Source: Calditrichaceae bacterium (GTDB taxonomy: Bacteria > Calditrichota > Calditrichia > Calditrichales > JBFXGD01). From it: 12,630 bases of DNA. Shown here one piece after another: positions 1 to 3,000 of this stretch. A program made the position numbers. Every line of letters begins with the position of its first letter. Within the stretch, counting starts at the first letter, position 1. The stretch covers positions 1,257-13,886 of the forward strand of contig JBFXGD010000088.1 of the NCBI GenBank assembly GCA_050178385.1. The letters run 5' to 3'.

Positions 1-3000
1 TTGCCACTGCATCCGATATACCGTTTTTTATCTTTTTCACTTAACAATATATAAACATCATACATGGCGGATTCGCCCGCCTAAGGCGGGTTGCAGACCT
101 CTCCCTTAGCCACTTGGGTACGTCGCCATTAATCTGTTAATTTTTTATTCAGAAACTCTCTACCCTTGCCGCTTTTGAAAAATTTCTCTCTGTTCATTGC
201 AGCTTGTTTATCGGGAAAAGTTTCTTTATAAACCAATTTCAAAGGTCGTCTGTTTCTGGTGGACTTTACCAGACCGGCTTGATGCTCTGACAGTCTTCGT
301 TCCAGATTGCCACTGCATCCGATATACCGTTTTTTATCTTTTTCACTTAACAATATATAAACATCATACATGGCGGATTCGCCCGCCTAAGGCGGGTTGC
401 AGACCTCTCCCTTAGCCACTTGGGTACGTCGCCGGAACCCTATAAATAAAAAAGAGCGAGAGACGGGATTCGAACCCGCGACCCCAACCTTGGCAAGGTT
501 GTGCTCTACCAGCTGAGCTACTCTCGCTTAAACATTACATATATATGCTTTATTTTTAGAAGTGGAAAATATAAAACTTTTTTAATTTCCTGTCAAATAT
601 TTTTTATCAAATTTTAAGTGTTATTTCCACCTGTCTTTTATCTGCTGCTTCAGCCTGTTCTTTCTCCTGGCTGCTTTCTTACCAGATTCTCTGGCTTGCA
701 TCAGATAAAACACAAAAATAAATACTAACAGTATTACTATTATACTTTCCATAATATTAGTGGAGACGCCGGGAGTTGAACCCGGGTCCGAACATGGACC
801 AACATAAACATCTACAATCATAGCCGGTTATTAGTTCTCGTTTTGCAACAGGCTGACCGACAGGCCAGTTTCAAAACCAGTTCATAAAGTTTTTGAAACT
901 TAACGCATGAACATCATTAAGCTCAAATCCACCCAAATACGGCGCTTAACTTATCCCCGGTGAATCAGAGAAGAGCAAAGCGTGACAGCATTATTAAGCT
1001 GCCATTGCATAATTATAATCGGCACTTATCGTGCTTCTGACTAATTACGGGATAGTCAGGATCCCGGATTGCCGTTCATATCCTTCACATGCCCGTCGAA
1101 TCCAAAATCGTCCCCGGACATATATTGACTCTTCAAAGAACTAAAGGAAGGTGACCGTGATCAGGGGAAGGCCGGGGGAGGACCTTTTATGCTGAACCTT
1201 AGTCACCTTCCTTAAATTCTCTGAAAATCGTATTTCAATAGCTATAAATATACAAGTTATTTATAATTTTATCAAGTATCAGCGTTTGTTAATATGATAT
1301 ATTTTCGAAAGATAATTCCGTTAGTTTAATTTTTTCGCAAATCAGGTCAAAAACCGGTCCAGCTCTCCCGTATCAGGCACCGGACATGATTCATATTTAC
1401 CAAACCAGCGGTACCGATGATTTGCGATCAGATCATAAATCCAATCTCTTATAGTCCCCGGGATCAATATAAAAACATAAAGCACAGGCCATAATCCGTC
1501 AAGTTCCTTTACAATCCTTAATGCTGCCGATGATCTTAAATATGCACTGCCCTCCCTGAACAAAACAATAGAATGCGCGTAATTTTCCCGTATTCCGGAC
1601 AGTTTTAATATCTCCTTTGCTTTATCTGAATCCAGATGCGCAAAACTGAATTTTCTCGCTGAATCTCTTTTTATAATAAATCTCACACTGCCGTTACAAA
1701 ACTTACAGATTCCGTCATATAAAACAATTTGTTTGTCCAATTACAGCCCTGACATTCCAATTTACTCTATTTACTGAACGATTTAAAATATTGTAAAGTT
1801 CATTCCCGTTCATGCGGACTTAACTATATTTCCGGAAACTGATGTTAAAATAGAGCTAAATAGTCAATCTGCATTTTCTTTGCGGGTGGCTTTAACAAGA
1901 ATATTACTCAAAACAGTCGCATCAACCGGCTTTTCCAGAAACTCAAAAATATGGTACTTTTTCATCATTTCAGTTATATTGAGATCCATTGTTCCGATCA
2001 TCAGAATCACCGGCAATTCGGGTCTGTAACTGTGAATCTCACAAGCCAGATCAATACCGGTCATTCCTGGCATATTCATATCCGAAACGATCACATCATA
2101 TTTCGATGGATCTTTCCTGAAATTTTCTAATGCATTGAGACTACTGTCAAACGCTTTGACACTATAACCGATTCTCTTCAACAACTGACTGCCCGCTTTT
2201 ATTAACTGAGATTCGTCATCAACCAGCATAATCATCCCTTTACCCCTTTGAAGCTGAATTTTTTCAACTTTAGCGTCAACCGGTTCATCAGAGATCATGG
2301 GGAGCAGAACAGTAACATTCGTCCCGATACCCGGCTCACTTTCAACAAAGATCTCCCCATCATGGCTTTTGACAATTCCATGAACTACGGACAACCCCAT
2401 ACCTGTACCTTCTCCTGCCTCATGGGTTGTAAAAAAAGGTTCGAATATCCTGTCCATGATTGATTGATCTATTCCTTTGCCCGTATCCCTGACTGATATT
2501 GAAGCATACTTCCCATTATCCATATTTATTTTTTCAGGAATACTCACATCTTCCGGTACCTCTACAGAATTCACTCTGATCTCTATTATCCCCTTGCCTC
2601 TTTCAAGCATTGCCTGGTAGGCATTTGTACACAGGTTCATCAATAATTGCTGTATTTCTACATCGTTAGATAATATAACGCCGCTGTTTTTATCTATTTC
2701 CAGCTTAATCTCCATGTTTGTCGGCAAAAGTGATCGAATCATTTTCATAGAATCTTTGATTGCCGCTGCAATATTTATCGGTTTATATTCTCTTTCAACT
2801 CTCCTGCTGAAGGTGAGAAGCTGCCTGACCAGTTCTTTTCCCCTTTTTCCAGCTTCCGCGATTTCTCTAAGATGCTGTTGTGCCTTATGATGTTCGGACA
2901 GATCATCAGATGCCAGAAATGTAAAACTTTGAATCGCGGCAAGTATATTGTTGAAGTCGTGAGCAATTCCTCCGGCCAGCGTTCCGATCGCGTCCATTTT

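Follow-up and report, generated by a model that had tools for sequence, protein, structure and literature searches.

A candidate selfish cassette of a palindrome-split pseudo-tRNA and a single-domain GIY-YIG nuclease gene resident at bacterial tRNA genes

Organization of the locus

The window that we analyzed, a stretch of 12,630 nucleotides from the genome of a Calditrichaceae bacterium (G000:C88:1257-13886), has a left edge that directly adjoins a 10-N scaffold gap. Inspection of the sequence revealed that, on the minus strand, a tRNA-Gly gene is followed by a 20-nt spacer and then by a 306-bp unit in which a pseudo-tRNA-Cys precedes a GIY-YIG ORF, with an intact tRNA-Cys gene lying beyond (Table 1). 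The 37-nt 5' arm of the pseudo-tRNA is the direct repeat that bounds each unit, and the unit contains the 80-aa ORF only; an integrase gene is absent between the repeats. Beyond the gap lies a second full unit (gene at C88:942-1184), followed by the intact tRNA-Cys, tRNA-Leu and a terminator. There are 4 base differences between the two full units, and a pair of these converts codon 56 of the second gene into TGA, ahead of Glu62. A third gene, C99:11856-12110, lies 206 nt after tRNA-Asp and sits between copies of the 3' half of tRNA-Asp, where the palindrome TCCCGAT-GT-ATCGGGA substitutes part of the T arm. The units in the window and on C99 are flanked by tRNA fragments that carry a short palindrome, and no NTS/SRM repeats (a CGTCAT-led hairpin) flank them.

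Table 1. Features of the minus-strand tRNA cluster, in window coordinates unless marked C88
Feature	Position	Strand	Remarks
Sigma-70-like promoter of the tRNA cluster, TTGACA-17-TATATT	568..596	-	11/12 consensus matches
Intact tRNA-Gly(GCC), upstream neighbor, non-cognate	454..527	-	
Chromosomal Gly-Cys spacer	434..453	-	Sister's empty site identical except one base
Pseudo-tRNA 5' arm	397..433	-	Exact tRNA-Cys nt 1-37, up to A37 after the GCA anticodon
15-nt palindrome CCCGCC-TTA-GGCGGG	382..396	-	In place of tRNA-Cys nt 38-55
3' arm remnant	372..381	-	tRNA-Cys nt 56-65; abuts the start codon (ATG)
80-aa single-domain GIY-YIG nuclease gene	129..371 (C88:1385-1627)	-	PF01541, E=2e-15
Partial next unit	1..127	-	5' arm 91-127, palindrome 76-90, 3' arm 66-75, first 65 nt of ORF
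Outside window: TGA-broken copy, intact tRNA-Cys, tRNA-Leu, terminator	C88:1246-722	-	

The initial annotation had described three mini GIY-YIG genes in this genome, and all three are present at full length. It placed each of them just 3' of a tRNA gene, which is accurate for the gene on C99; the two on C88 lie behind a pseudo-tRNA-Cys and in front of the intact tRNA-Cys. The tRNA-Gly gene, which it regarded as the leading tRNA, proved to be simply an upstream neighbor and is ruled out as the cognate tRNA: the repeated sequence derives from tRNA-Cys, and in the tree the protein clusters with copies linked to tRNA-Cys. That annotation also lacked the defining features of the element, namely its conserved palindrome and the partial duplicates of the tRNA.

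As a whole, the pseudo-tRNA folds no better than shuffled sequence (z -0.5), and no Rfam family matched the pseudo copies. Expression of the gene probably rides on the tRNA operon transcript, given that one promoter-like site lies ahead of tRNA-Gly and nothing resembling a terminator precedes tRNA-Leu; the promoter was called from its consensus match, and 2 such sites were found compared with 3.1 expected in shuffled sequences.

The GIY-YIG protein and its relatives

The window protein matches PF01541 at 57.2 bits (cut-off 22.6). The GIY-YIG domain covers residues 3-70 of 80 and no other domain was found; neither Pfam nor a structure model revealed a DNA-binding domain, which bears out an earlier remark that none could be recognized. 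Residues Y5, Y16, G18, R26, H30 and E62, which we take to be the GIY-YIG catalytic set, are present and are invariant in 28/28 aligned members; the predicted active site is intact. The structure model (pLDDT 93.6) most closely resembles UPF0213 proteins and the catalytic domains of Slx1/HIGLE (TM 0.62-0.71 for Slx1), with I-TevI and UvrC further away. The UPF0213 structures 1ZG2 and 1YWL are the best matches in both sequence (E=2e-16 and 5e-14) and fold. Thus, the UPF0213 label used previously correctly names the closest solved structures, but it does not define the group of tRNA-linked proteins described below. No NCBIfam model scored above its cut-off for the window protein, and the ESM Atlas returned generic GIY-YIG clusters only. 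The protein is under purifying selection: dN/dS is 0.03-0.34 in all computable pairs except one (0.72), with synonymous sites saturated between genera and in many of the pairs, and one listed pair belonging to the REP-type group.

To place the protein among its relatives, we built a tree of 57 distinct proteins of 65-125 aa from loci of the order and class, some of them picked for being tandem. All 35 proteins of one branch (support 98/99) are tRNA-linked, 29 because a tRNA was called nearby and 6 because inspection showed pieces of a tRNA, an adjoining tRNA or the end of a contig, whereas none of the 22 proteins outside this branch has a tRNA and 18 of those 22 are flanked by REP/NTS-like repeats. 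The tRNA-linked clade is therefore separate from the genes with NTS-like repeats of the same genomes (SsnA itself lies outside this tree). Its members sort according to the tRNA type, the window protein being placed with the Cys-linked copies. A C-terminal NPxW motif, presumably linked to cd10448, occurs in no tRNA-linked member and in many of the REP/NTS-flanked genes. The occurrence of copies across the order, noted earlier, was confirmed in 30/39 genomes at E<=1e-15, the weakest matches including REP-flanked genes. Some copies had been reported as having no tRNA nearby; such copies exist, but they likely belong to the other branches, flanked by REP/NTS-like repeats.

A scan of GTDB yielded at least 564 relatives, of which the best 80 were studied, a few of them repeating loci already in the order and class set. 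The records among these 80 are named Calditrichota, Ignavibacteriota, Bacteroidota, Patescibacteria, Acidobacteriota, Chloroflexota, Planctomycetota and others. A same-strand tRNA lies within ~500 nt in 74 of the best 80, and 5 of the other 6 genes start no more than 154 nt from the edge of the locus. The nearest intact tRNA is downstream of the gene in 31/73 labelled loci of this set, at least 2 of the 73 labels giving the nearest rather than the cognate tRNA. Since between about one third and two fifths of loci, the window locus included, have the gene ahead of the tRNA, the proposal that these genes obey a "tRNA-tailing" rule has to be abandoned.

Close relatives on phages, plasmids and viral contigs are almost nonexistent. 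Ten Rhizobium phage records carry relatives at ~40% identity, and one of these records, examined over 5.2 kb, has no annotated tRNA there. Plasmids gave a single weak match. Three loci were found in IMG/VR, one with a pseudo-tRNA-Arg layout and one with a tRNA-like sequence downstream, and a search of these viral contigs with the palindrome gave 4 matches, from which the gene is absent.

The palindrome and the geometry of the units

At 53 of the best 80 GTDB loci, there is a GC-rich palindrome whose two flanks both match the cognate tRNA, compared with 16/222 non-cognate controls. At least two of the 53 (L146 and L195) appear spurious, and the number of loci with a palindrome-substituted copy is about 52. 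Each tRNA type has its own fixed junction, namely A37|C56 in Cys, 24|37 in Arg(ACG) and 24|31 in Pro(GGG). The A37|C56 junction recurs in Calditrichota, Ignavibacteriota, Wirthbacteria and Desantisbacteria records, and units of the Cys type are also present in two Melioribacter records (L122 and L127). Four different stems occur at the Cys junction, with 77, 9, 5 and 3 matches over all loci (duplicates included), and all are paired. The palindrome thus changes in ways that preserve its stem, indicating that the hairpin is kept and not just its sequence.

In 43 of the best 80 GTDB loci, the gene lies between a substituted copy and an intact tRNA, and these loci fall into two mirror layouts. In the 15 loci with the order pseudo-gene-intact, the 5' arm is full in 10/15 and the 3' arm in 1/15; in the 28 with the order intact-gene-pseudo, the 5' arm is full in 1/28 and the 3' arm in 23/28. 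Such complementary fullness of the arms is the outcome expected of a single one-arm crossover of an [arm-palindrome-arm-gene] unit. Tandem duplication combined with gene conversion, with no circle involved, would yield the same arm geometry. At Cys loci, the pseudo 3' arm fits the host's own tRNA best in 17/20, one of the misses being due to a mis-picked reference, indicating that the arms are renewed locally.

Gene and palindrome tend to occur together. Among 18 intact tRNA-Cys genes in the 39 genomes, 6 have both, 1 (L106) has the gene without the palindrome, 2 have the palindrome only and 9 have neither (Fisher p=0.013, with kin that are not independent). When metagenomes were matched to the Cys palindrome junction, the gene was found within 600 nt on the same strand in 41/63 matches, and in 17/25 of those with both flanks of at least 450 nt; 4 of the gene-less matches are not tRNA-derived.

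Tandem copies and empty sites

The 127-nt piece at window positions 1-127 is identical to the sequence across the scaffold gap, and the same 127-nt overlap occurs at 8/14 gaps of the assembly; 127 is a common k-mer size. This piece is therefore ruled out as a third full copy, being most likely an assembler overlap, and the array holds at least 2 units. In runs from two other sequencing studies, X2 and X3, the unit makes a closed head-to-tail loop that returns after 306 nt. The X2 loop corresponds to the intact copy, and the X3 loop differs from it at two places, both third codon positions and read as synonymous. These loops stand at ~1.6 and 1.7-2.3 times the depth of the flanks, summed contig depth being a rough guide. 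Runs X1 and X8 had no coverage of the ORF, which speaks neither for nor against its presence, and no RNA run is among those listed as containing the sequence. Tandem repetition also occurs in genomes that are single contigs: G002 has a three-gene array at tRNA-Val, and G003 has seven units at tRNA-Cys that are gene-free derivatives.

In the same-genus sister genome (G001), no protein match to the mini GIY-YIG was found. Its Gly-Cys-Leu cluster differs from a unit-free version of the C88 locus by 2 mismatches and 1 gap over 277 nt, indicating that its Cys site is cleanly empty. The sister's tRNA-Asp locus holds at least 4 palindrome-bearing tRNA-Asp fragments and a 10-N gap, so that absence of the gene is less secure there. 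The earlier statement that the sister lacks all copies between contiguous flanks is thus upheld at the level of the protein and at the Cys site, and does not extend to contiguous flanks at the Asp site. Overall, the sister genome contains palindrome arrays and 26 palindrome copies, with the gene undetected.

The copies had also been viewed as recent insertions or losses. In a tree of 111 proteins, the tRNA-type label changes 27 times, compared with 67 times when labels are shuffled, and the clusters mostly represent one tRNA type within a phylum (Arg in Acidobacteriota, Asn in Chloroflexota, Val/Glu/Asp in Calditrichales). An AU test does not reject a grouping of the Calditrichota Cys copies as one clade (p=0.64, from 80 columns and with the free search scoring below the constrained tree). 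Given these sub-clades, the saturated synonymous sites and the AU result, old residence with repeated loss fits as well as recent insertion does. Transfer to a different tRNA type or phylum appears to be rare, and is hinted at by the Wirthbacteria and Desantisbacteria records, whose Cys-type units have the A37|C56 junction.

Proposed element and alternative explanations

The element family is real and widespread, apparently unpublished, and looks like a minimal selfish element distributed across bacterial groups. On balance, we lean toward viewing it as a self-maintaining cassette of 280-430 bp, resident at one tRNA gene and of the form [short tRNA 5' arm - GC palindrome - short tRNA 3' arm - GIY-YIG gene]. 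With the same slight preference, we propose that it is a hairpin-directed nuclease (nickase) cassette that uses recombination with its tRNA gene to multiply and persist, and that is lost by the same route. The protein would recognize the hairpin that the palindrome forms when the DNA is single-stranded or extruded as a cruciform, and would nick beside it, by analogy with SsnA at its own hairpin and in keeping with an Slx1-like fold. The nick could then set off recombination of the tRNA-derived arms with the intact tRNA gene. If the crossover fell in the 5' arm, the result would be the pseudo-gene-intact order seen in the window, and if it fell in the 3' arm, intact-gene-pseudo; one working tRNA would be left in both cases. 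Repeated rounds would build tandem arrays, whereas loop-out would restore an empty site, and palindrome units devoid of the gene might be served by the nuclease in trans. We infer the nick, the site that it targets and any circle. Against this reading stand the single gene-bearing locus that lacks the palindrome (L106), the sister's palindrome arrays in which the gene was not detected, and the near absence of close relatives from phages and plasmids.

A bolder version of this proposal, which we regard as speculative and rather less probable, is that this is the smallest known autonomous mobile element of bacteria. It would be a 300-bp circle with the palindrome-split pseudo-tRNA as its attachment site and an 80-aa GIY-YIG protein that nicks the hairpin. 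Such an element would enter either half of an essential tRNA gene with neither integrase nor transposase while preserving the gene, would occasionally move to new tRNA types and phyla, and would spread its palindrome to other tRNA genes and repeats.

The most serious competitor, although an unlikely one, is a passenger model. In it, the palindrome would be a REP-like repeat in its own right, mobilized by Ssn or a RAYT, the gene would encode a host nuclease of long-standing vertical descent that happens to lie beside a tRNA, and the repeats would have arisen by ordinary unequal recombination. The palindrome is indeed dispersed: this genome has 31 copies, compared with 1 for a control, and a relative has as many as 104. 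Most of these copies lie within REP/NTS-like repeats that are not tRNA-derived, and the palindrome also occurs in NTS-like repeats beside Ssn-like genes (L024, L061, L077). Its spread therefore need not be the work of the GIY-YIG enzyme; another enzyme could be responsible. The unrejected single clade of Calditrichota copies fits vertical descent, and purifying selection is compatible with a host function. A resident host gene does not readily account for the patchy presence of the gene at 7/18 Cys loci, for internal stops in 6/86 order-wide matches, or for a genome with unrelated copies at different tRNAs (39% identity). Moreover, gene and palindrome are immediate neighbors across numerous tRNA types and phyla.

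We consider SegB-like homing improbable. Here, the protein would cut the intact tRNA gene of an element-free allele (for Cys, within nt 38-55), and the palindrome would mark a resistant copy. The way sub-clades track tRNA type is what homing would produce, as is the deletion by the palindrome of a fixed segment for each tRNA type, and SegB cuts tRNA genes at a T-loop motif (PMC2330249). Nevertheless, an intact, cuttable tRNA gene remains beside the gene wherever the locus is assembled, and the protein lacks the DNA-binding domain that SegB has. The replaced segment also varies among tRNAs (D arm, anticodon arm, T loop), and homing leaves the gene-free arrays unaccounted for.

There is little to recommend a module that benefits the host, in which the pseudo-tRNA RNA is an antitoxin or decoy for the nuclease (resembling type III toxin-antitoxin systems) or in which the tRNA locus is amplified against tRNA-cutting attack. 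A repeat RNA and a small nuclease do share one likely transcript, some pseudo copies still fold as cloverleaves (L060), weak PADLOC matches occur in 8/28 members, and amplification by SegB aids phage T6 against Septu (PMC13096335). However, a functional tRNA is missing from the amplified unit, PADLOC gave no match for the window protein, and clean loss is common. Known GIY-YIG enzymes are DNases. SsnA ignores RNA (PMC11893778). Finally, collapsed or duplicated repeats in the assemblies, suggested by the 127-nt overlap, the gap at the sister's Asp site and the many copies at contig ends, are a very improbable source of the tandem copies and empty sites in light of the closed 306-bp loops in two other studies, the arrays within G002 and G003, and the 4 base differences between the two full copies.

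Comparison with known systems

The cassette that we propose works like a cross between NTS-ssnA-NTS and SegB, yet it departs from what defines each of them. SsnA of Neisseria meningitidis (CDD cd10448) cleaves ssDNA at a position adjoining its hairpin, and its gene is flanked by the NTS/SRM hairpin, which is also dispersed genome-wide; the authors likened NTS-ssnA-NTS to a mobile element (PMC11893778). The word "tRNA" does not occur in the main text of that paper. The window protein (80 aa, one domain) resembles Ssn in being a single-domain GIY-YIG protein, of 80-100 aa, beside a conserved and dispersed hairpin. Unlike Ssn, the tRNA-linked clade is a branch separate from the NTS-like-flanked genes, and its hairpin is a 15-18-nt palindrome inside tRNA fragments rather than a GTCAT-led NTS.

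SegB of phages T4/T6 is likewise a free-standing GIY-YIG protein encoded in a tRNA cluster, likely co-transcribed, with many tRNA types and tandem repeats (PMC2330249, PMC13096335). The initial annotation was sound in recognizing a tRNA-bound clade of stand-alone GIY-YIG genes with tandem multiplication and patchy presence, and SegB was a sensible analogue. SegB differs in being a phage protein with a C-terminal NUMOD3 DNA-binding part (PMC2330249); it makes double-strand cuts at a 27-bp site, and its cleavage leads to tandem tRNA-segB repeats that amplify the full tRNA (PMC13096335). The window element, on the other hand, has the catalytic domain alone, is chromosomal, and repeats with a palindrome-broken tRNA.

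UPF0213 proteins (1ZG2, 1YWL) and Slx1/HIGLE are the closest in sequence and fold, and Slx1 cuts branched DNA, as indicated by structure titles, but Slx1 has further domains and a partner. Integrative elements that carry an integrase and recombine attP with attB at tRNA genes share the direct repeat of a partial tRNA, the retained intact tRNA and the clean empty site. They differ from the window unit, which consists of a nuclease gene only and has no integrase, which duplicates either arm and which forms tandem units. We found no description of a palindrome-substituted tRNA/GIY-YIG element among the open-licence PMC and bioRxiv papers listed by our searches, which leave most subscription papers uncovered, and the passages of PMC9897764 that were searched contain nothing relevant to it.

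If the proposed cassette is correct, a second family of single-domain GIY-YIG nucleases gains a candidate substrate that can be read from genomes, much as the NTS provided one for SsnA, and the many proteins of this family now labelled "hypothetical" become testable. It would also show that an element can live and amplify in essential single-copy tRNA genes without an integrase, and an 80-aa hairpin-directed nuclease could serve as a tool. The element accounts for pseudo-tRNA calls, arrays of tRNA fragments and contig breaks at tRNA genes in assemblies; in this genome, tRNA-Val(UAC) is missing exactly at an array of this kind.

A scan of this genome with 13-mers for tRNA fragments gave 134 matches, mostly due to chance; among the matches listed, palindromes occur only in the Cys, Asp and Val arrays.

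tRNA-derived arrays within the genome

The tRNA-Val-like repeats listed in the table form an array that runs past the end of contig C119. Given that tRNA-Val(UAC) is absent among the 40 tRNAs called in the genome under study, an additional element may have been left unassembled. At the tRNA-Asp array, the last pseudo-tRNA is joined to the ~148-bp repeat, an arrangement common to this genome and its same-genus sister, G001. In G001, matches to the tmRNA and to tRNA-Gly fall on separate contigs.

Repeats and genes in the genome under study and at locus L078
Feature	Location	Description
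tRNA-Val-like 5' part repeats	C119:1-300	TCCCGA..TCGGGA palindrome; 3 full 85-bp units and a partial fourth
66-aa ORF and tmRNA gene	window 621-821 and 760-1115	tmRNA (tag ADYNYAMAA) just upstream; ORF overlaps tmRNA 3' end
~148-bp repeat	C99:12240-12583; end of C146; locus L078	two other palindromes; after tRNA-Asp array

Gene-free arrays and other forms at further loci

Palindrome-substituted tRNA fragments also occur in arrays without the gene at L100 (single-contig genome G003), L065, L063 and L102, where the tRNA types are tRNA-Cys (7 units), tRNA-Asn, tRNA-Ser and tRNA-Gly; at L065 a broken gene is present besides the array. At L060 (single-contig genome G002), pseudo-tRNA-Val copies carrying a palindrome in place of the anticodon arm are still accepted by ARAGORN as tRNA-???. 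The pseudo 3' arm at L138 matches a tRNA-Cys variant of another genome at 19/19 positions versus 16/19 for the host's own tRNA-Cys, which may reflect past transfer or preserve an earlier state. Behind the clade member at L169 lies a tRNA-like 5' half, which runs on into unrelated sequence; ARAGORN makes no call for this half, and it may belong to an intron-containing tRNA. The REP-type GIY-YIG match at L006 (G034:C262) falls within an open frame of 555 aa resembling a restriction-helicase gene.

Dispersed palindromic repeats

The palindrome CCCGCC-N3-GGCGGG is found in ~20 copies within two dispersed repeat families on many contigs of the genome under study (e.g. C53, C119, C162, C187, C229 and C277). 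One of these families, led by GTCATCCTG, is NTS-like; despite its presence, no Ssn-like gene was found in the assembly. Other palindromic repeats are abundant genome-wide, for example CTCCCTTATGCATAAGGGAG (18 copies) and CTTTTTGAATGGCCAAAAAG (13 copies).
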